From an uncultured delta proteobacterium (GTDB taxonomy: Bacteria > Desulfobacterota > Syntrophia > Syntrophales > UBA2185): a stretch of DNA of 64,000 nt. Below the pieces are notes generated by a model. That model was given only the letters and a program-made list of their open reading frames with translations, made no database searches and was not told where the DNA came from. Made by a program: the position numbers and the translations under genes. Below are positions 14,586-61,497 of this stretch, piece after piece (positions within the stretch are counted from its first letter, which is position 1; each line of letters begins with the position of its first letter). The stretch is from positions 476,438 to 540,437 of the forward strand of contig OY970063.1 of NCBI GenBank assembly GCA_963705275.1. The letters are read 5' to 3'.

Positions 14586-16106
14586 TCATGGCAGATGCTG
14601 AGGCCTCAGTAAATCATGGATTGTCTTTACGGGATTGAACGTCTCGATGGGCACTTCAACAAAAACGGTGATCCAGAAAGCCATTGAACCGTTCCATAAC
14701 CCTGGAAGTTCAAGCGCCTTAAGGTCCCTACCCTTTTCGGATTTCTGTGAAATAAAATAGGCGTTTCTATTGACAAAATCATGGAGATCAAATTCGCAAG
14801 ACTGGTAGTTGCGAATCCCACAGACAAGATCGACGGGATTGAAGTGCGTTGCCCGGGACCAGATTGCCCTCTGTTCTGCCGATCCTGAATCTATCTGTGA
14901 CTCCTCAATAATCTGAAGCGATTGCGTTTGATCTTCCTCGTTCACCCAGAATGGACCTCCGCCCGGCTCTCCTTGATTTCTCACCATACCGCATACCCGA
15001 ATGGGTCGGTTGAGTCTGTTGAAAACGAAAGCGCCTTTCTCCGAAAGAGACAAATCATCAAACCACGGCGGGATGACAAGATGAAGTCTTCTTTCACAGA
15101 ATAGCTTCAGCTCCTGCAGAGTCTTTTCGTCCAATTCTGCTTTATCCAAGTGCCTCAGATATCTGAATATATCGTTCTGAAGGGAGATGAGATAGCCGCC
15201 GAGAGCCTTCTTGTAAAATACGGTTACCGGCTTCAACCTGTCAGGTACTATATTGTCAATATTCTTTAGATAGATTATATCTCCATCAGTATGGTACACA
15301 TTATCCAGAAGAGCGCCATGGCCGGCCGGCCTAAAGACAAGCTCCCCCCACTGATCCCGAAACGGTCGATTGTCCAAATCCACGGCTATTGTATTTGTAG
15401 ACGATTTCTGCGTGGAGAGTGCAATATCAAAGATCACATTATAGCGCTTCTCATAATACCTTCTAATCACGGACAGGTAATCCGCCACATCATCATGATG
15501 CTCCTCCGAGAGAGTGAAATGGAGTCTACATATGCGGCAGGCATCTTTCGTATAGAGCGCCGCCTCTGCCAGATGCTCTTCAAGGGCGGTGCGGCTGCCA
15601 TCGGAATAAGAGTGAAATTTCAAGAGCGCTTTAGGTAGGTCGCCGTAATTCAATCCTTTAGATGTCAAGATGTAGGACAAGATATCCGCATGTCTTTGGA
15701 CTTCCAACATCTTTTCAAGTTCTTCGCCATCACGCAATACCACATCACGCAAATCACAATAAAATGCGAACCTTTTTAGTTCCCTGGCAAACTCTTCTCT
15801 GTGAATCGCATCCAGACTTCCCTTCTCCAGAAACACATACCAATCTCTGAACATGCGAGTGGCAGCCCCGGAGGCGGGTACAAACTTCAGCACCTTCCGG
15901 CCCATCTGGAGCTCTTCTTCATATAAAGCCGCCATTTTCGTGAGCTCGTCTTCCGAAAGAGTCACGATACCGTCATTAACGGTGCACGGCCTGTTGAGCT
16001 TGACTGGACAAAGACCTCTCTTGAAGAGGTCGATCTGCGCCAACACCTGGTCGCGAGTGAGGCCTTCTTTCTCAATTCGTCTTACATCCGCTTCTATAAA
16101 AATCAT
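14586..16106 (-). CDS. DUF4301-like protein with NDP-sugar pyrophosphorylase-like motifs
   Basis: 506 aa. The N-terminus ...EKEGLTRDQVLAQIDLFKRG... is followed by FVPASGAATRMF and FRPAGHGALLDN. These resemble the UDP-sugar pyrophosphorylase nucleotide-binding and catalytic loops. Confidence 0.6.
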   Translation of the reverse strand: MIFIEADVRRIEKEGLTRDQVLAQIDLFKRGLCPVKLNRPCTVNDGIVTLSEDELTKMAALYEEELQMGRKVLKFVPASGAATRMFRDWYVFLEKGSLDAIHREEFARELKRFAFYCDLRDVVLRDGEELEKMLEVQRHADILSYILTSKGLNYGDLPKALLKFHSYSDGSRTALEEHLAEAALYTKDACRICRLHFTLSEEHHDDVADYLSVIRRYYEKRYNVIFDIALSTQKSSTNTIAVDLDNRPFRDQWGELVFRPAGHGALLDNVYHTDGDIIYLKNIDNIVPDRLKPVTVFYKKALGGYLISLQNDIFRYLRHLDKAELDEKTLQELKLFCERRLHLVIPPWFDDLSLSEKGAFVFNRLNRPIRVCGMVRNQGEPGGGPFWVNEEDQTQSLQIIEESQIDSGSAEQRAIWSRATHFNPVDLVCGIRNYQSCEFDLHDFVNRNAYFISQKSEKGRDLKALELPGLWNGSMAFWITVFVEVPIETFNPVKTIHDLLRPQHLP

Positions 16107-16178
16107 ATTAATCCGTAATGCGCATTTCCTTCAATCAGGTCAGCTTGAACTGAACACTGGTAAAGTTCTTCCGCCACA

Positions 16179-16224
16179 TAAAAAAGGTGCCCCTTCCCTT
16201 CTGCCATCCCGCGAGAGCGCACCT
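16179..16224 (-). terminator. possible terminator after the CHASE2-FHA operon
   Basis: The minus strand reads AGGTGC...(28 nt)...GCACCT followed by TTTTTT. The loop is unusually large, so this call is weak. Confidence 0.3.
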
Positions 16225-16389
16225 TCGGTAACCATTAAAAATAAATGCCCTAAAATGATTCTAAGATACTATTTTTTCTTTATCTTTTTTACCGAGATCT
16301 TGCGTAGCCGGCTTCTTTCCCTCAATAACCTGGATATGTCTTTCTGCCTTCGCGTGGGTCTTTCTCTTGACATGGTTATTTGCTTTAGG

Positions 16390-17091
16390 TCATTCCTTTA
16401 TATAATACTGTACCTTTAATCCACCTGCTTCGACAATGTCACCATCTTTCAGATCGTATTTGTGATCAACCTTCTGGCCGTTTACTTTCAACGTTCTTCC
16501 TCCCGCAGGCGTGATAAAATATCCTTCCCTTCTTCTATTGACAAGGGCGGCCACCTTGGGGGCAAAAAAGCCTCTAAGATGAATACCGGCTCCGTCTTCC
16601 TTGCCGATAGTCGTCACTCTCTCTTTTAGAAGATAATCCCTTTTTCCCGTCGATCCTTCAATAACTATGAAACCTCCAAGGATCTCTGGCTTTTCCTTGT
16701 CCTGAGGGGCCAGTATTCTCTTCTGATCTTCCGCGGCAATTACGACGGTTTCGTCCATCGAATGCCCCTGTACGGCAAAACCCTTGGTTTCCGTTTCCCT
16801 TGCCTTTTCCACGATGACATCAAGTGTATGAACGCCTATTAAGACCACGTCTCCGTTATGCAATTCGCCTTTAGAAATTTTCTGGCCATTAATAAAGGTA
16901 CCGTTCAGGCTATTCGCATCCTCAATGAAGAGAGAACGTCCCTCCTTCTTGATGCGCGCGTGATACCCGGATACGGCTTGGTTATCGATAACAATATCAT
17001 TGTCCTTTTTTCTCCCGATAGTTATGACGTCCTGATCAAGCGGTATCTCCCTTATTATGGCTTCTTTAAATTTGAGCAAAATCTTCGCCAC
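16390..17091 (-). CDS. protein with two FHA domains
   Basis: The N-terminal FHA reads ITIGRKKDNDIVIDNQAVSGYHARI...NSLNGTFINGQKI. A second, more divergent FHA-like domain (TTIGKEDGAGIHL...LKVNGQKV) follows. The start lies 3 nt after the CHASE2 gene stop. Confidence 0.85.
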   Translation of the reverse strand: MAKILLKFKEAIIREIPLDQDVITIGRKKDNDIVIDNQAVSGYHARIKKEGRSLFIEDANSLNGTFINGQKISKGELHNGDVVLIGVHTLDVIVEKARETETKGFAVQGHSMDETVVIAAEDQKRILAPQDKEKPEILGGFIVIEGSTGKRDYLLKERVTTIGKEDGAGIHLRGFFAPKVAALVNRRREGYFITPAGGRTLKVNGQKVDHKYDLKDGDIVEAGGLKVQYYIKE

Positions 17092-17094
17092 GCA

Positions 17095-18690
17095 TTACCT
17101 CCTGAACCATTCCTTAAACTTTAATAGAAAAGAAATCCAGCTTTTATTCCTGACGTGTCCCACGATAACCGTTATGTTGTCCTTCCCGCCTTGTTCATTC
17201 GCCAGCTCCACCATGCTGTCACACACTGCCGCTGGATCTTTCGTTGACATGGCCAGAGGCAGCATATCGTCGTCGGAAACCATTGTCAAATCGAGCATGC
17301 CCTGTCCCTGGAAAGAAAGTCCAAGTATCTTATTCGTTTCGACACCATCAGCCTCGATGCGCTCTCTCGCCTCTTCTGTAAAAAAGTACCCCTTTGTAAC
17401 CACCAAAGTATAGCCGATCAGGATGAGGAGGGACGGATGAACAAGTTTTACCCAGTATCTGTAATTCATCAAAAGATACATCCCCGCTCCGATCCATGCC
17501 AAGAGAATGATCAACGATACAAGGGCGCTGATCCTAATCTTCAGCCTGGGTATAATCAATGCGAGAAACAAACCAAAGAAAACGATAACCCCTATTTCCA
17601 AGGGGAATGCCCAGGCCGGACGTACAATATAATTACCCGAGAGGATATTGTCGGCAACATTGGCAATGATACCCCAGGATGGAACATTTGGTCCAACAGG
17701 CGTAGCCTGTAGGGCGCCGAGGCCGATTGCGCTCTGCGTAATAATAACAATTCTATCTTTAAACGCCTCCGGAGGTGCCTTGTTGCTGGCCACATCATAG
17801 AAAGAGAAATAGGGAAAGCTCCTGCTGAAGCTTATGAGCATCTCACCTTTGTCAGATGTGACGATGCTGTTATTTCCAAAATTCACTCCGCCAGAGACAC
17901 TCACATCTCTTATATCGTAGTTCAAATATTTCAAGGACAGCTGAAGCCCGAATGACGGGTATGCCCGCCCTTCGTAATATACCACTAGAGGTTCACTCCT
18001 TACAGTTCCGTCAGCATCCGGAATAATATTGATATGCCCAAGAGCCAACGCTTTCATGGCAAAGTCAGGAATCGGCGGCACGATCTCTCTTGCCGATATG
18101 CTTACCTCCTGAGACGCTACGGGCACAGAATTCTGTTTCAGATAATCCGGAATTTCAGATACTTTGCTCCCCACAGGATTGCCCAGGATGAAGACCAGGG
18201 GCAATACAACTTTATTGCTCTCTCCGATGGCTGCACCCAGTATTGCGTCATTATCAAGTTTCTTTTCTGTCTCCTTCAGCCAGGAGTAGATGCTGTTAAC
18301 GTGGGCATCTTTCAGTACGCTGGCATTAGTCTCTATATTCTTGAGAATATCGCGCACCTCAGTCAGCCCTTGATTCATATCATTTTCAGAATAGATTACA
18401 TTTACTCCTATTACCTTTGCTTCACACTTGTTGAGAAATTCTACCATCCGTGCTATATAGCCACGGGGCCACGGCCATCTGCCCATATTGGCGATACTCT
18501 CATCATCCACTGCTACAATCACAATGGGGGCATTTGAAACCTGCTCCTTCAAGTTGCAAACTGCGTCGTAGACCTTGTATTCTAAGTATTTCGTAGGCAT
18601 CCATTCAAAGTAAAAAGCGGCGATCGTCAGGACTGTAAGAATTACCCCGATTATAATATCTGTAATCACTGATCCCATTAACTTGTTCAT
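17095..18690 (-). CDS. CHASE2 sensor membrane protein ending in a PP2C-phosphatase C-terminal remnant
   Basis: The CHASE2 signature VIVAVDDESIANMGRWPWPRGYIA is present, followed by 3-4 TM helices. The tail MVSDDDMLPLAMSTKDPAAVCDSMVELANEQGGKDNITVIVGHV equals the last motifs of PP2C. I prefer the start at ATG 18690 (GAGGG SD); the ORF extends to 18747. Confidence 0.8.
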   Translation of the reverse strand: MNKLMGSVITDIIIGVILTVLTIAAFYFEWMPTKYLEYKVYDAVCNLKEQVSNAPIVIVAVDDESIANMGRWPWPRGYIARMVEFLNKCEAKVIGVNVIYSENDMNQGLTEVRDILKNIETNASVLKDAHVNSIYSWLKETEKKLDNDAILGAAIGESNKVVLPLVFILGNPVGSKVSEIPDYLKQNSVPVASQEVSISAREIVPPIPDFAMKALALGHINIIPDADGTVRSEPLVVYYEGRAYPSFGLQLSLKYLNYDIRDVSVSGGVNFGNNSIVTSDKGEMLISFSRSFPYFSFYDVASNKAPPEAFKDRIVIITQSAIGLGALQATPVGPNVPSWGIIANVADNILSGNYIVRPAWAFPLEIGVIVFFGLFLALIIPRLKIRISALVSLIILLAWIGAGMYLLMNYRYWVKLVHPSLLILIGYTLVVTKGYFFTEEARERIEADGVETNKILGLSFQGQGMLDLTMVSDDDMLPLAMSTKDPAAVCDSMVELANEQGGKDNITVIVGHVRNKSWISFLLKFKEWFRR

Positions 18691-18743
18691 ATATTCCCTC
18701 GTTACTGACAGAAAAGATACGCCTAGCCGCTCACCCGTTGTTA

Positions 18744-18950
18744 TCACCTGACGCCAGTGCCCTTAGAATTCGGCACATAATATATCATATTTCTTACCAG
18801 AGTATCGGGCAAATCCCAGAAAGTATTTCCATAAATGAAAAATCTCTCATACTTAATCTTGCATATCACGAAGAGATCCCCCTCTGGGGTTTGAAACTTA
18901 TATGTTGTGTTGAGAACAACCTCGGCGTCAACAATAACCGCCGCGTCCAA
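18744..18950 (-). CDS. hypothetical small protein (about 68 aa, TTG start uncertain)
   Basis: An open frame sits in the 415-nt gap between the RND gene and the CHASE2 gene. The codon usage looks plausible. There is no SD, no ATG and no recognised family. Confidence 0.25.
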   Translation of the reverse strand: MDAAVIVDAEVVLNTTYKFQTPEGDLFVICKIKYERFFIYGNTFWDLPDTLVRNMIYYVPNSKGTGVR

Positions 18951-30984: not shown

Positions 30985-31266
30985 CTACTTCTTCGCATCA
31001 ACTTTAGCTTTAAGTTCTTTACCCACTTTAAAAAAGGGCAGTTTCTTCGGGGATACCATTATATTCTTCCCCGTTTTTGGATTCCTGCCGGTATAGGCTG
31101 TATAATTTCTTACTACAAAACTACCGAAACCCCTAATCTCTATCCTGCCGCCTTTTTTCAGTTCGTCAGTAAAACCCTTGAAGACCAGATTAATTACATC
31201 AATTGCCTTTTTCTCCGTTAGGTTTTCTTTTGCACTTAAAGCCTCAATGAGTCCAGACTTGTTCAT
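30985..31266 (-). CDS. ihfB: integration host factor beta-like DNA-bending protein (HU/IHF family)
   Basis: MNKSGLIEAL...GGRIEIRGFGSFVVRNYTAYTGRNPKTGKNI... The RIEIRGFGSF motif is IHF-beta-like. The start was chosen at the ATG preceded by GGAGGAGG. Confidence 0.8.
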   Translation of the reverse strand: MNKSGLIEALSAKENLTEKKAIDVINLVFKGFTDELKKGGRIEIRGFGSFVVRNYTAYTGRNPKTGKNIMVSPKKLPFFKVGKELKAKVDAKK

Positions 31267-31446
31267 ACCTCCTCCTTCTGACAATTCATCTCACAGCAAT
31301 TCTTAGTAAACGTGCTGTCTGAATGGCTCATTTCAAAATAACATGATAATTTATCTGTAGATTTGCCGATCATTATTTATTTTCATTTCAATGTCAAGAC
31401 AAATTTTCTCGCCAAAATCAGAGTCTTTAAGCGGATCATATATCTA

Positions 31447-35058: not shown

Positions 35059-35331
35059 CTATTTTACTTTACCTGCTAGTTCCTTCCCTGCCTTGAACTT
35101 AACAACTTTCTTAGCCGGTATCTTTATGGTTTTCCCAGTCTGAGGATTTCTTCCCTCTCTTGCCTTTCTTTTCACAACAGAAAAGGTGCCAAATCCGACG
35201 AGACCCAATTTCCCGCTCTTTCTCAGCTCTTTGGTTACTGCCCCTACATAAGACTCTAATGCCTTCGCCGCCGCCGCTTTGGTGATGCCTGCCGCTCCCG
35301 CCATTACCGCAATTAGTTCTGCCTTCGTCAT
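35059..35331 (-). CDS. hup: HU-family DNA-binding protein
   Basis: 90 aa. MTKAELIAVMA...[41 protein letters not shown]. Confidence 0.9.
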   Translation of the reverse strand: MTKAELIAVMAGAAGITKAAAAKALESYVGAVTKELRKSGKLGLVGFGTFSVVKRKAREGRNPQTGKTIKIPAKKVVKFKAGKELAGKVK

Positions 35332-46682: not shown

Positions 46683-46836
46683 GAATGCCATGGACAATCT
46701 TCCCGCGCAGACAGGCGTCCTGATACGGATTGTCTGCTCGCGGGACCGTTTTGAATTCTTTGCCGTTGACATCTAATTGCAATCGTTCTATAAAAAAAGA
46801 GAGAGAACCTCTCGGCAGCACAGGGTAAATCACTAT

Positions 46837-48051
46837 ATGACAACTGAATTGACATATGTAGTTATCACACCATACAGCCTCCTCAAGTCGAGGACCGGCA
46901 ATATCATAGCACGGCTCATGTCTCTCTCCGGCTGCGACCTGGTCGGTATCCGCATGATGCGGCCGTCGGATACGTTTGTAAATGAATATATACGGCGTGT
47001 GAAAAGTTTGAACATCCCCAAGGTGGGCAAGGCGCTCGTCGATTATATCGACCAGAATCTTCGGCCTGAAAATATCTTGAAACAGCAGAATCGCTGTTTG
47101 TTTCTTCTCTTCGAGGGCGCGGACGCTGTCGCGAGAATCTACGACGTTGTCGGTAAACTAACCACTGTGACGGAATCAGAGGCCAATCGCGGAACAATTC
47201 GCGGAACCTACAGCGACTATATCACCACCCCTGACGGAGCTGTCCGGTACTTCGAGCCGGCAGTCCTGTTGCCCACGAACCTTGAATATGCAAAGAACAA
47301 TCTGGAATTTTTCGCAAAGTTTGGATTCAGCGATTCCGGCATCTACGAAGAATGTTCCGAAGGAGAAACAACACTGGTCATCCTGAAGCCCGACAATTTC
47401 TTCAAGCATTCTGTCCGCCCGGGAAATATGATCGACATGTTTTCCAAGACGGGTCTCCGGATTGTCGGCGCCCGGATGATACGTATGAGCGCCGCCCAGG
47501 GCGAGGAGTTCTATGGATTCCTTCGCGACGTTTTCAAGAAGAAGCTGAGGCCACAGATCGTGGCCCATCTTAAACAGGGAATGGAGGGCCTCTTCAATTT
47601 CCAGATAACAGATGACGAATTCAATGCCATGGCTGAAGTCATTAGCGAAAAAAATGCCCTGTACGAATTTTCACAGATCGTAAAATACATGACCGGCCTC
47701 GACCCGAAAGATGTACCGCCGGCAGACCGAGACAAACCCGGGAAACACCTCGCGCTGGCGCTTCTTTACCGCGGCCTTAACGCAGTTGAAATAATACGTG
47801 AACGCCTGGGCGTAACCGATCCCGCAATCGCCGCAGAAGGAACTATCCGTTCCGATTTCGGCCAGAACATTGTGCAGAATGCGGCACATGCATCCGACTC
47901 CGTCGAAAATGCCGTCCGTGAAAGAAAAATCATCGGTCTCTATGACGATGCAGGCGACGACTGCAAGAGAATAATCGAAGACTGGCTGAAGGATGATCGT
48001 GGCAGTTCAATGCCCTTGAAGGAAACAGCGAGAATTCAAAAACAATTTTAA
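46837..48051 (+). CDS. tandem nucleoside-diphosphate-kinase-like protein (degenerate NDK plus catalytic NDK)
   Basis: The second half has TLVILKPDNF..., ...GTIRSDFGQNIVQNAAHASDSVENAVRE (the NxxH.SDS active-site His) and an insertion. The first half is NDK-like (YVVITPYSL..., RGTIRGTYSD) but lacks the His. Start taken at ATG 46837. Confidence 0.7.
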   Translation: MTTELTYVVITPYSLLKSRTGNIIARLMSLSGCDLVGIRMMRPSDTFVNEYIRRVKSLNIPKVGKALVDYIDQNLRPENILKQQNRCLFLLFEGADAVARIYDVVGKLTTVTESEANRGTIRGTYSDYITTPDGAVRYFEPAVLLPTNLEYAKNNLEFFAKFGFSDSGIYEECSEGETTLVILKPDNFFKHSVRPGNMIDMFSKTGLRIVGARMIRMSAAQGEEFYGFLRDVFKKKLRPQIVAHLKQGMEGLFNFQITDDEFNAMAEVISEKNALYEFSQIVKYMTGLDPKDVPPADRDKPGKHLALALLYRGLNAVEIIRERLGVTDPAIAAEGTIRSDFGQNIVQNAAHASDSVENAVRERKIIGLYDDAGDDCKRIIEDWLKDDRGSSMPLKETARIQKQF

Positions 48052-48155
48052 TGAAGGATTGCTTCTCAAGTATCGTGAGCTTTCAGAAGCGACTTAGCTG
48101 AACTCCGGCATGAACTGCCAGTTGCCCCGAAGGGTCTCATGTTGTAATCCTGCCT

Positions 48156-48790
48156 TTAGAAGACCGATGAACTCATTCGCGGGAAATGTAGCGAGCCCCC
48201 AATGCTTTCCAGATGGGCCGTATAAACCTGGCAATCCAAAAACTTAAATTTGAGTCCCTTCAATTTGTAGACCAGATCGATCAACGCCGCCTTTGATGCG
48301 TTGCTCATAAGCGAAAACATAGACTCGCCGAAAAAGCATCGCCCCAGCGATACACCGTAGATGCCGCCGACAAGTTTTTCCTCATGCCAGGCCTCTGCTG
48401 AATGGGCATTCCAAGATCGTGCAGTGTGCACAGTACGCCTCAAGCATGTCATCCGTAATCCAAGTGCCATTCTGTTCTCCTCCGCAATTTCTGACAAGAT
48501 AGAACGACTTCACGAAATTTATGATCGTACGTAATCCGAAAGATCCCTTGCCGTAATACCTTCTTCATGCTTCGGGAGACTCTGAGTTCTTCCAGAAATA
48601 ATACGAATCGCGGGTTGGGAGACCACCAGATGATGGGATCGCCTTCTGAATACCATGGGAAAATGCCCTGGCGGTAAGCCGTCGAGAAGCCTACCGGGCG
48701 AAAGGTCACCACCGATGGCAAGGATACCATTTCCCGATGTCAGCTGCACGGGAGGAAATTTATTTCGTCACCCAGTCGAAAAATCGGCAT
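48156..48790 (-). pseudogene. aat: leucyl/phenylalanyl-tRNA--protein transferase, multiply frameshifted
   Basis: Aat blocks are recovered only by hopping frames: MPIFRLGDEINF / GNGILAIGGDLSP / AYRQGIFPWYSEGDPIIWWSPNPR / [14 protein letters not shown] / LHDLG / [30 protein letters not shown]. Confidence 0.8.
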
Positions 48791-48907
48791 GAGATATTTA
48801 GTGCCAGACTCCCATAGCCCGATGGGCACTGTGAGGCGTTAAGTCATAACTCTGAGGTTTTGAAAAAGAGAATCTGCGCCCGTCGCAAGTGCTAAGTGAC
48901 CTAGGAT

Positions 48908-51183
48908 CTACTCTTCGAGAACCCGCACAGTGACATCATCACCTTCAATGTCCGCAAGAGCAGTGCCGCCTTCTTGCAGCTTCCCGAAAAGCACCTCATC
49001 CACAAAGAATCGTTTTATCTTGTCCTGGATCAGACGGGCAATCTCTCTTGCCCCGAATTCCTGGGAATAGCCTTTACGGGCAAGCCATTCATAACACCGG
49101 TCTGTAACCTTGAGGGTTACATTCTTTCTCCTGCAACTGAACGGAGAATTCACCGATCGCCTTTTTTACGATCATGAGCACTACTTCATGGGTAAGGCCG
49201 TTAAAGTTGACAACCCCATCAAGACGGTTTCTGAATTCAGGCGAAAAGATCCGCTCCACCGCCGTGAATACGGCGTCCCTGATTGACATTCTTGGCCTCA
49301 AATCCGATAATCTGCCTGCCGATCTCCCGCGCACCGGCATTCGATGTCATGAGTATGACTACGTTACGGAAATCTGCCTTCTTTCCGTTGTTGTCCGTCA
49401 GCGTCGCGTAGTCCATCACCTGGAGCAGATGTGTTGAAAATATCGGCATGAGCCTTCTCGATTTCATCAAGGAGCAAGACGGAATGGGGATTCTTTCTGA
49501 TAGCCTCGGTGAGCAGTCCACCTTCTTCGTAACCCACATAGCCCGGCGGCGCCCCCACAAACTTTGCAACGGTGTGCTTTTCCTGATATTCACTCATATC
49601 ATAGCGGTGCAGAGGCACTCCGAGAGTAGTGCAAGCTGTCGCGCAAGTTCGGTCTTTGCCCACACCCGTCGGGCCCACAAACAAGAGGGAGGCAACGGGT
49701 TTGTGAGGTTCACGGAAGCCCTACGCGTGAGCGCTTGATGGCATCCACTACCAGCTCAATCGCTTGATCCTGTCCGAAAATCTTACTCTTGAGGCTTGTC
49801 TCCAGATCCTTCAGCTTGTCCAAGCTCGGATGACGAAACGCTCTTTTCCGGTATTCTGGCTATCTTTGCATCAACCGCTTCGATATTATGAAGATCGACT
49901 ATCTTTTCTACGCCCTCATCGGCATCCTTCATATTAGCCAGAGCGCCGGCTTCATCGATTACATCGATTGCCTTGTCCGGAAGCCTTCGGTCATTGATAT
50001 ATTTGTCAGGATAATTCCGCGGCGCCCGAATGGCCTCTTCGGTATATGACACACGATGATATTCTTCGTATTTGCTTCTTGATACCCTGCAAGTATCTTC
50101 ACTGTATCATCTGTTGTCGGCTCCGATACCTCAATCTTTCTGGAACCTGCGGGAAAGAGCTCCATCCTTCTCAAAATATTTGCGGTATTCGTCGTATGTG
50201 GTGGAGCCGATGCACCGGAGCTTGCCTGAAGCAAGTGCGGGTTTCAGAATATTGGACGCATCCAGCGAACCGCCTGACACAGCCCCGGCGCCGACTATAT
50301 TATGAATCTCGTCGATGAACAGGATTACCTTTTCCTGTCTCTGAAGTTCAGCGATTACGCGTTTCATGCGCTCTTCAAAATCACCCCGAAATCTGGTGCC
50401 GGCAATGATCGCTCCCATATCCAGGGCGTATATCTTCGAATCCTTCAGTCGTTTCGGAACCTTCCCGTCAGCAATGAGCTGCGCCAGCCCTTCGGTTATG
50501 GCCGTTTTCCCAACCCCGGGCTCTCCGACATGGACAGGGTTATTCTTGAATCTTCGGCACAGGACCTGGATAGTCCTCTCAAGAATATCCTCCCGCCCTA
50601 TAAGGGGATCGATCTCTCCTGCTTTCGCCTTGGCAGTCAGTTCTGTCGTGAATGATTTCAGTATCTTGTTTTGCTCAGAATCCTTTTCTTTGGACTCTTG
50701 TTCAGGCTCACTTTCCTCTCGCTTCCTGCCCCGCTTTTGTACTTCCGTAGTTTCGGGAATAACAGAGACGCCGTGAGAGATATAATTGAGCAGGGAAAGT
50801 CGTGTGATGCCTTCTTTCTTGAGGAAAAATGAGGCATAGGACCCCTTTTCATCAAGAATTGAAACTAGAACATCTCCCAGTTCAACAATATCCTTCTGCG
50901 CAGAGGTGGTATGCCATACCGCTCTCTCCAGAACATTTTGAAAACCCAATGACTGGACGGATTGAGCCCCCTCCACAACCGGATTGCCCTCGCGGAGATG
51001 CTTTGCCAACACTCTTTTTAAATGTTCGGGATCGCCGCCGCATCTTTGGATGATGTCAGATCCGTCATCAAAGAAAAGCGCGGCATAGAGAAGGTGCTCA
51101 GGCGTTACGAACTCATGAGACCGCGTATTGGCCTCGGCATATGCGGCCATGATGATTTGATTCAGACTTTCACTTATCTTCAT
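48908..51183 (-). pseudogene. clpA: ATP-dependent Clp protease ATP-binding subunit ClpA; N-terminal ~349 codons in frame, remainder multiply frameshifted
   Basis: It is in frame from ATG 51183 to about 50137 (N-domain, Walker A GEPGVGKT, ...RRFQK). After that, ClpA blocks are scattered over all three frames: [15 protein letters not shown]; [17 protein letters not shown]; KYINDRRLPDKAIDVIDEAGA; IFGQDQAIELVVDAIKRSR; [11 protein letters not shown]; [12 protein letters not shown]...[10 protein letters not shown]; [23 protein letters not shown]; [12 protein letters not shown]; EFGAREIARLIQ. The total length of 2276 nt is about that of a full-length ClpA. Confidence 0.85.
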
Positions 51184-51200: not shown

Positions 51201-51524
51201 TCAGGCCTCTTCCAATGAGCACTTCAGGGGAAATTCTTTCAGCTTCGCCATCCTATGGACCTGCGCTGCTTTCGTGGCGGCAATATCATAGGTATACACA
51301 CCACATGCCCCGGCCCCTTTCTTATGGACGTCGAGCATTATTTTGGTGGCTTCCGCCGCTGGCTTATGGAACACAAGTATCAGAACTTCGACGACAAATT
51401 CCATTGTCGTATAATGATCATTATGAAGTATGACCCGATACATCTTCGGTTCTTGGAGGACCGTATCGGGATCTAACTTGACATCTCTGTCATCCATTGA
51501 ATCAGGATCACGATATTTCGACAT
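51201..51524 (-). CDS. clpS: ATP-dependent Clp protease adaptor ClpS
   Basis: [21 protein letters not shown]... is the ClpS core. ATG 51524 is preceded by GAGGG. The stop is 17 nt upstream of the clpA start. Confidence 0.9.
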
Positions 51525-52103
51525 ATATCCCTCAAACTGCACATCAGTAGTTTGCCTTCTAGTAAATCTACAACACTAATATAGAACACAGGAGGCTGAC
51601 TGTCAATGTCGTTATTGGGCTCCTGGAAACGCTGTAAACTTGGATAATTAGATATTCAGACAATCTCATGCCTTTTTTTGCGATGACAGGGATGCCCCCT
51701 TTTCATGATATCAGGGTGGTTTCCGTCTATCCGATAATTTTGTATTATATGATAGCCCCCCTATCTGCAAAGCTTCGGATTTTGCGAACTCGCCGCGACA
51801 TAGGGCAAGACCACCAATCTGCCAGATAGGTACTTGAGGGAGATATATTTTGCCTTTGTATCCGTTAATTTCTATGCTAAAAAATCTGAGCCGTTAAATA
51901 TGCTCAACAAATTGAATCCTTCGGTTCTTTTGCTGCAGTGTCCGTACTTGCAACAAGAAACGATGCAGGATATATTTCAGCTATCTAAGATTAGAGCGGC
52001 TTTGCAACTGGTTTGCGAAATAACAAATTAAGCTTAATTGCCCAATCACAGGACAGCATGCATAGCTCGTGTAAAGATAGAATAGGTCTTTAGGGGGTAC
52101 CCG

Positions 52104-56769: not shown

Positions 56770-57069
56770 GGTTCTCTAAAAAATGGCTCACTTGAAAGTC
56801 ATTCTGTGATTTGTCTCCGGAAGATAACACAACTCACTGTGAAATTGAATCTTAATCTACTTCTCCAAGATGCTTTATCCCAGGGAAGCCCGATCCAGAC
56901 AAGAGAGTTGGTATATATCATTGATTTTTGCGTTGTTATGCGTTAGTAATTTAAATCCTTTCGGGCGGGGGAAAATAGTGAGGGAGCGTGGGCTGAAGGT
57001 TCTTTCGTTGTCAGACGAGAGGACTAAGCTCTACCAGGATATACATTTGATGAGCACGAAGAGAGGTAA

Positions 57070-57255
57070 ATGAAGATTTTTCTGACCGGTGGAGCACCGG
57101 CTGTATCGGAAGCTCAATCGTACCTGCCCTTGGCAAAGGGTCATGACACAATTCTATTCGACAATCTATCGACTGGTCACAACTGGGCCGTCTTTTACGG
57201 TACGCTGAAAGTGCAACACCTTGAAGACAGCTCTTACCTTGAGAGTGGGAATTAA
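57070..57255 (+). pseudogene. 5' stub of an NAD-dependent epimerase/dehydratase (GalE-like), frameshifted and truncated
   Basis: MKIFLTGG is in frame 0. TGCIGSSIVPALGKG (the GxxGxxG Rossmann motif) appears only in the +2 frame. KGHDTILFDNLSTGH returns to frame 0. The ORF stops after 61 codons, 5 nt before the next gene. GAGAGG SD is retained. Confidence 0.6.
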
Positions 57256-61227: not shown

Positions 61228-61497
61228 TCATTTGACGGCATCTTTCAATGCCTTGCCCGCCGTAAACTTGGGGACCTTTTTGGCGGCAATCTTGATCGGT
61301 TTGCCGGTCTGAGGATTTCTTCCTGTTCTGGCAGCTCGCTTAGAAACGGAGAAAGTACCGAAACCAACGAGAGTAACCTTGCCTCCCTTCTTCAATCCTT
61401 TCTTGATTGCATCAAGGACCGCATTCACCACACTGGCAGCCTCCGCCTTGCTGCAGGTAGTTTTTGCAACTACATTGACGAGATCTTCCTTATTCAT
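61228..61497 (-). CDS. hup: HU-family DNA-binding protein (second HU copy)
   Basis: 89 aa. [11 protein letters not shown]...[49 protein letters not shown] is present. Confidence 0.9.

Follow-up and report, generated by a model that had tools for sequence, protein, structure and literature searches.

Introduction

In the bacterial Leu/N-degron pathway, leucyl/phenylalanyl-tRNA–protein transferase (Aat) puts Leu or Phe on an N-terminal Lys or Arg, the degron is bound by the adaptor ClpS, and the substrate is unfolded by ClpA into ClpP. A known counterpart of the locus studied here is that of E. coli (clpS-clpA … aat). We analysed a 64,000-nt stretch of DNA, here called the window, from contig OY970063.1 of an uncultured member of the Syntrophales (GCA_963705275.1). 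As in E. coli, the window carries clpS, clpA and aat as one co-oriented cluster. It differs in that aat stands directly after clpA, and after repair of the sequence nothing about the arrangement is unusual. As written in the record, clpA and aat are broken by many frameshifts within a patch of about 2 kb.

Frame changes inside genes are familiar from programmed frameshifting and transcriptional slippage, of which prfB and dnaX are examples. That type relies on a single, defined slippery site supported by stimulatory elements, whereas the patch has 20 sites that shift in both directions, share no motif and include one in a spacer. Programmed frameshifting was rejected as an explanation, as there is no single conserved slippery site and the orthologues are read in one frame.

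Frameshifts also occur in decaying genes. Natural bacterial pseudogenes are deletion-biased, with insertion:deletion ratios between 0.07 (Geobacter) and 0.9 (Wolbachia), and their deletions are longer on average than their insertions (Kuo and Ochman, 2009; PMC2817411). In curated Burkholderia pseudogenes the ratio is 0.76 and the mean deletion is ~19 nt; about one third of the deletions are 1 nt long, and about half of the insertions are direct repeats (Danneels et al., 2018; PMC6054270). False frameshifted pseudogenes, in turn, are documented to arise from indel errors in long-read and hybrid assemblies (PMC12007338, citing Watson and Warr), and long-read gap patching raises local indel counts (PMC4671558). 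The errors that usually persist in Nanopore or HiFi consensus after polishing are centred on homopolymers (PMC12007338).

Judging from the sequence and its comparison with relatives, we consider the damage most probably (at about 0.88) a local consensus error patch of a long-read type, lying over an intact clpS–clpA–aat operon, with no loss of the N-degron pathway.

Materials and Methods

The region from 47.9 to 51.3 kb of the window was aligned at the DNA level to nine relatives (L001, L002, L003, L082, L083, L085, L087, L088 and L089; 84–88% nucleotide identity). Reading frames were also followed at the protein level by a k-mer frame trace, which is independent of the DNA alignment and replaced tblastn, which merged frames. 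For repair, insertions private to the window were deleted and private deletions were filled. Values of dN/dS were obtained by the Nei–Gojobori method against the relatives, after removal of the indels.

Results

Layout of the locus

The features used in this work are as follows, in coordinates of the window:

46777–48051, forward strand: gene for an NDK-domain protein of 404–424 aa; convergent neighbour, clean, lower bound of the patch
48094–48790, reverse strand: aat (leucyl/phenylalanyl-tRNA–protein transferase), 697 nt; seven indels giving eight frame segments
48791–48907, reverse strand: clpA–aat spacer, with one private 1-nt deletion at 48864
48908–51183, reverse strand: clpA as written, 2276 nt; 755 codons in the indel-free reconstruction
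50131–51183, reverse strand: clean part of clpA, 348 codons; N-domain and most of AAA+ D1, with Pfam Clp_N and AAA matches
51201–51524, reverse strand: clpS, adaptor gene (start at 51524 or 51542), intact and immediately 5' of clpA; Pfam ClpS (E = 2e-35) and NCBIfam ClpS models
48177–50140, no strand: indel patch with 20 private small indels, from the alignment to nine relatives, the frame trace and the clean flanks
57070–57255, forward strand: galE pseudogene remnant outside the patch, used as an internal control, from comparison with relatives L001–L004

The clpA gene starts at 51183 (MKISE…) and is interrupted by a premature stop at 50131, which is made by the first insertion (RRFQK-D-stop). 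An earlier note on this DNA had put the start of the damage in the middle of clpA at this same motif, and the alignment agrees, with the first indel at 50140 and 348 clean codons before it. Past 50131, ClpA and Aat sequence is detectable just as short pieces that switch between frames; the aat fragments match Pfam Leu_Phe_trans. As written, therefore, the record holds no single uninterrupted ClpA ORF: 12 frame-breaking indels lie between 50140 and 49127, and residues 1–348 alone share one frame. The length previously given for clpA (2276 nt) was right, and that for aat (635 nt) was not, as the gene measures 697 nt by our boundaries.

Number, position and spectrum of the indels

Alignment to the nine Syntrophales relatives gave 20 indels private to the window, running from 50140 to 48177 at about one per 98 nt. 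Twelve are in clpA (50140, 50089, 50074, 50024, 50008, 49824, 49718, 49658, 49628, 49428, 49282 and 49127), one is in the spacer (48864) and seven are in aat (48760, 48683, 48477, 48432, 48409, 48203 and 48177, that at 48432 being 2 nt). The k-mer frame trace was concordant, with nine visible switches in clpA and seven in aat; the lower number in clpA arises because two close indel pairs merge in the trace. An exact count against close relatives had been proposed in the earlier note, and the two methods together put it at 20 events. Its description of a sharp-edged patch of ~2 kb with about one frameshift per ~100 nt and clean flanks was accurate, its 12 frame changes in clpA were exact, and its "at least 5" in aat became seven. 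One detail did not survive. A deletion in a C run near aat (TTCCCTCCC read as ttcctccc) does not exist, since the relatives also read TTTCCTCCC; the base actually missing there is a T a few nucleotides upstream, at 48760.

The clpA gene, the spacer and aat all carry the same density of indels. That density is blind to coding status, as a private deletion lies inside the spacer as well. Insertions outnumber deletions 15 to 5 (ratio 3.0; one insertion is of 2 nt), for a net gain of 11 nt. All but one of the 20 events are of a single nucleotide, none is a multiple of three or long, and the majority show no association with a repeat. Against the most permissive natural insertion:deletion ratio, 15:5 has P ≤ 0.011, and the deletion bias and broad size range of classical neutral-decay pseudogenes are absent from the patch. 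Such a spectrum resembles single bases inserted and deleted almost at random, with miscalls few or absent, and is unlike replication slippage or end-joining. GC and homopolymer content of the patch did not differ from the flanks.

The finer texture of the indels bears on the stage at which they may have entered the record. Their spacing within the patch is roughly random, the inserted bases are near-uniform (C6, G4, T3, A3), and 3–4 of the 15 insertions copy an adjacent base, compared with ~6.6 expected if random. These three properties would suit a corruption after assembly, such as a consensus made chimeric when haplotypes or contigs were merged in error, or a data-handling edit, in place of poor raw-read accuracy. 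By sequence alone such a corruption looks the same as the long-read-type error patch that we prefer, and its practical consequence is equal; a merging of haplotypes should, however, also give clusters of substitutions, and none were seen. We give it only a slight chance.

Edges and flanks of the patch

The patch begins at codon 349 of clpA, spans the spacer and stops inside aat, ~85 nt short of the aat stop. At the indel rate of the patch, the lack of any indel in the clean 1043 nt of clpA has P = 2e-5, and the lack of any in the NDK-like gene (1275 nt) has P = 2e-6. The N-terminal part of clpA, clpS and the convergent neighbour, all of which had been called clean in the earlier note, indeed carry no frame-breaking indels against the relatives. 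Across the ~22 kb that could be compared with relatives, no further frame-breaking indel was found. Outside the patch, indels against the relatives in 44–56 kb and 60–64 kb are multiples of three, intergenic or at a gene junction only, those in 60–64 kb being all intergenic or 5' of the real start codon. Adjacent or overlapping ORF pairs in the window included no other frameshifted gene, as the suspicious pairs proved to be separate complete genes, and ORFs in the remainder of the window are uninterrupted. Searches of the window for tRNAs and Rfam families gave no matches. An indel density that ignores coding status and gene borders, together with sharp edges against clean flanks, is what characterises an indel-error patch.

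Identity to each relative is continuous over both edges of the patch. A chimeric fill from another strain or species was excluded on this basis. No meaningful repeat was found at the edges, and a deletion, recombination or misassembly brought about by repeats was accordingly dropped. The contigs of some relatives end close to the start of the patch, that of L170 at the position matching 50130 of the window and another three within ~40 nt. This clustering was not counted as evidence, because the 23 contig ends inside clpA decay smoothly and the sample is biased by selection.

The same edges can be set against a real, one-off event in the cell, in which a ~2-kb tract was resynthesised by an insertion-prone process that added non-templated single bases with almost no substitutions, so that all indels arose at once. 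It could have taken the form of error-prone repair synthesis, or the tract could have recombined with a cDNA or DNA intermediate that had been copied badly. Such an event would account for an abrupt boundary on either side, for indels spread evenly through the tract, for the absence of neutral substitutions beside them and for a similarity to relatives that does not change at the edges. Yet the patch edges are free of mobile elements, reverse transcriptases, repeats and features associated with breaks, and an allele inactivating two conserved genes must still be the population consensus. Nor is any bacterial polymerase or repair pathway known to give ~1% non-templated single-base insertions with essentially no substitutions. 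A resynthesis of this kind thus seems to us highly improbable, to the same degree as a corruption after assembly.

Repaired genes and their relatives

Repair yielded a ClpA of 755 aa and an Aat of 230 aa, with zero internal stops in about 985 codons. The repaired ClpA scored 1084 bits against the NCBIfam TIGR02639 equivalog (cut-off 993) over model positions 2–731 of 734, and the repaired Aat, which has seven indels as written, scored 203.9 bits against the TIGR00667 equivalog (cut-off 143.55), so that both belong to their families. The Walker A (GPTGVGKT) and Walker B (LLLDEIEKA) motifs of D2 are readable in the repaired ClpA, which aligned without gaps to ~30 database relatives at identities of up to 96.7%. 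In other words, the indels are the sole lesion, and their removal restores conserved full-length genes, as in an indel-error patch.

All nine close relatives have an intact clpA (759–772 codons) and an intact aat (230–255 codons), and aat lies directly 3' of clpA in 9/9. The closest relatives are MAGs and metagenome contigs from peat and fen, with 84–88% nucleotide identity at the locus. The best match in the genome contig collection was at 97% amino acid and 84–86% nucleotide identity, and that in the metagenome contig collection was at 88% nucleotide identity. The repaired ClpA was searched against 5.8 billion proteins and the clusters were expanded; the best match had 96.7% amino acid identity, and the complete ClpA proteins among the best matches were all full length. 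Exact look-ups of two HU proteins had relatives at 82–94% nucleotide identity among the matches listed. Each of the two also counted one contig longer than 1 Mb; should this be where the window comes from, a long-read metagenome assembly would be the probable source, and it is in such assemblies that errors of this kind arise (PMC12007338). A sequence of the same species was not found in the genome contigs, the metagenome contigs or the 5.8-billion-protein set, and exact look-ups of six window proteins were without match; the nearest DNA has 88% identity at the clpA–aat locus and 92–94% elsewhere.

Selection on the substitutions

Once the indels were removed, the substitutions in the patch could be compared with those in the clean part of clpA and with those between intact relatives. 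Between the window and its relatives, dN/dS was 0.026 in the clean N-terminal part of clpA. In the C-terminal part, which lies in the patch, it was 0.051–0.055 for the window versus relatives and 0.074–0.091 between intact relatives; in aat the corresponding values were 0.15–0.16 and 0.12–0.19. Private substitutions amount to 2.6% in the patch and fall 68% of the time on third positions. Their distribution over codon positions 1/2/3 is 9/7/34, compared with 4/2/17 in the clean clpA N-terminal part (Fisher p = 0.78), in line with the little substitution decay remarked on in the earlier note. At positions 1 and 2 together, the private rate is 1.2% in the patch vs. 0.9% in the clean part (p = 0.51). 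The substitutions in the patch therefore show undiminished purifying selection with no sign of relaxation in the window lineage, as both dN/dS and the codon-position distribution match those of the clean N-terminal part or the intact relatives. The raised dN/dS and lost third-position bias of classical neutral-decay pseudogenes are absent, as is their accumulation of nonsense codons, the repaired ORFs having no in-frame stop.

The galE remnant as an internal control

A genuine decayed pseudogene lies ~7 kb from the patch in the same window and has the classical signature that the patch lacks. Relatives L001–L004 carry galE at this position, and a full ORF of 327 aa was read in L001. In the window, the first ~57 codons are kept, with indels of +2 nt and −2 nt, and are followed by a ~820-nt deletion of the remainder. 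Of 170 nt in the remnant, 16 (9.4%) are private substitutions; they fall 10/4/2 on the codon positions with no third-position bias, and this distribution differs from that of the patch (Fisher p = 1e-4). In terms of substitutions per indel event, galE stands at ~16 to 3, whereas in the patch 20 indels stand against an excess of roughly 0–15 substitutions. The galE remnant fits the class of classical neutral-decay pseudogenes.

This contrast weighs on a genuine and very recent pseudogenisation, in which the D2 of ClpA and Aat, and hence the ClpS/ClpA/Aat N-degron pathway, would have been lost by ordinary decay. The indels are present in the sequence as given and break both genes, the two genes share one pathway, and the real galE pseudogene demonstrates that gene decay does occur in the lineage. 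Against this, 20 neutral indels should bring many neutral substitutions, as the ~16 per three events in galE illustrate, and the patch has no measurable excess at positions 1 and 2, no nonsense codons and an unchanged dN/dS. The published bacterial spectra (PMC2817411, PMC6054270) are contradicted as well, in that insertions prevail, the events are uniformly of 1 nt but for one and a repeat context is missing. Furthermore, the patch starts in mid-gene and crosses the spacer at equal density, and it leaves clpS and the first 348 codons of clpA untouched. Ordinary decay is consequently very unlikely in our view, if somewhat less so than the resynthesis or post-assembly corruption described above.

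Discussion

The 20 indels exist in the record; none is shared with the relatives, none lies beyond the patch, and together they constitute the sole defect of both genes. Their evolutionary signatures point to an origin in sequencing or assembly, and it is from these signatures that we infer both that origin and its route. The earlier note had preferred a quality or assembly patch over pseudogenisation, and this preference is supported by the restored ORFs, dN/dS, the codon-position bias, the indel spectrum and the contrast with galE.

Under the reading of a local consensus error patch, a stretch of ~2 kb would have a consensus accuracy far below that of its flanks. The segment may have been backed by one or very few long reads, or it may be the branch of a minor-haplotype bubble, a gap filled with long-read sequence or a stretch missed by polishing. 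The host would then have an ordinary intact clpS–clpA–aat operon.

With the false frameshifted pseudogenes of long-read and hybrid assemblies, the patch shares small indels as the sole defect, the removal of which restores conserved genes, and an error density unrelated to gene borders or coding status (PMC12007338, PMC4671558). It is unlike the usual errors of long-read assemblies in that these are scattered, while here they are packed into one sharp 2-kb block at ~1%. With classical neutral-decay pseudogenes, it shares the presence of several frameshifts in genes whose counterparts in relatives are intact (PMC2817411, PMC6054270). Unlike them, it has no substitution excess, no relaxation of dN/dS, no nonsense codon and no long or 3n deletions, and its insertions exceed its deletions.

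Two observations speak against an artefact. No repeat is present at the edges that would mark these exact 2 kb. In addition, the usual errors of long-read consensus are associated with homopolymers, and those of the patch are mostly non-homopolymer insertions, which is atypical of Nanopore or HiFi consensus after polishing; single-molecule sequence, either raw or of low depth, would be the better fit. The error profile of PacBio CLR is dominated by insertions, and we take the spectrum of the patch to resemble low-depth single-molecule sequence of this type especially.

Taken at face value, the record would be annotated with two pseudogenes, and a loss of the N-degron pathway would be attributed to a peatland lineage of Syntrophales. 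Were the indels real, they would have come from a mutational process without precedent, and if a one-off event were true, it would have instantly inactivated the ClpA/Aat N-degron pathway in a free-living syntroph. The analysis also offers a read-free way to separate an error patch from real decay, namely dN/dS after indel removal together with the codon positions of private substitutions; the insertion:deletion spectrum and comparison with a genuine pseudogene on the same contig extend this diagnostic further. The main value of the finding lies in caution and in a correction of the annotation: the patch is most probably no genuine feature of the organism, and beneath it lie an ordinary ClpA gene and an ordinary Aat gene whose arrangement is conserved.

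Flanks of the patch

The convergent gene on the lower-coordinate side of the frameshifted clpA–aat patch and the intergenic region beyond clpS were compared with related Syntrophales contigs.

46777-48051, + strand: gene for a long protein with three stretches matching the nucleoside-diphosphate-kinase domain
51543-52103: divergent, AT-rich intergenic region of 560 nt between clpS and a GT2 glycosyltransferase gene

The product of the first gene is of unusual length (404–424 aa) and shows a mosaic pattern of similarity across the relatives. Between 47.07 and 47.47 kb, identity was 93–96% to contig L003 and just 77–88% to contig L001, a mosaic which suggests recombination between related lineages. 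The intergenic region, with a GC content of ~42%, presumably holds the promoters of both clpS and the glycosyltransferase gene. Its identity to the relatives was only 70–75%, with numerous small natural indels.

Several relatives have contigs that end close to the start of the patch. A 3.1-kb contig of a related MAG (L170, JBTECH010000381.1) terminates at ClpA residue 351, corresponding to ~50130 in the window and at most 10 nt from the first patch indel, and contigs L094, L090 and L124 end 5–13 residues beyond that point. These ends could reflect a break point in the assembly graph directly past the conserved RRFQ motif. Their clustering was considered as a signal and was not significant, since the 23 contig ends lying inside clpA had a smooth and selection-biased distribution.

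Other genes of the window

Three small genes of the HU/IHF family (Bac_DNA_binding-like) were found in the 64-kb window, each embedded in a longer non-coding stretch, along with a group of genes forming a possible signalling cluster.

30985-31284, − strand: small HU/IHF-family gene
35059-35331, − strand: small HU/IHF-family gene
61228-61497, − strand: small HU/IHF-family gene
14586-18747, − strand: DUF4301, FHA-domain and CHASE2-domain sensor genes

The DUF4301 protein is complete (506 aa, 676 bits), and its gene adjoins those for the FHA-domain protein and the CHASE2-domain sensor.

Loss of galE

57070-57255, + strand: remnant of galE (UDP-glucose 4-epimerase), with a deletion junction at 57240-57252

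The galE remnant is a genuine pseudogene. About 57 N-terminal codons are left, carrying one indel of +2 nt (‘CA’ after GGAG), one of −2 nt and 9.4% private substitutions without codon-position bias. The rest of the gene is gone through a deletion of ~820 nt relative to the related contigs L001–L004; a full galE ORF of 327 aa was read in L001. In another relative, L083 (Ga0209777_10000420), the corresponding position spans ~43 nt (205-248 of that contig) vs. ~267 nt in the window (56985-57251), and galE seems to be wholly absent there. The loss of galE thus appears polymorphic within the clade, and may be further advanced in L083.
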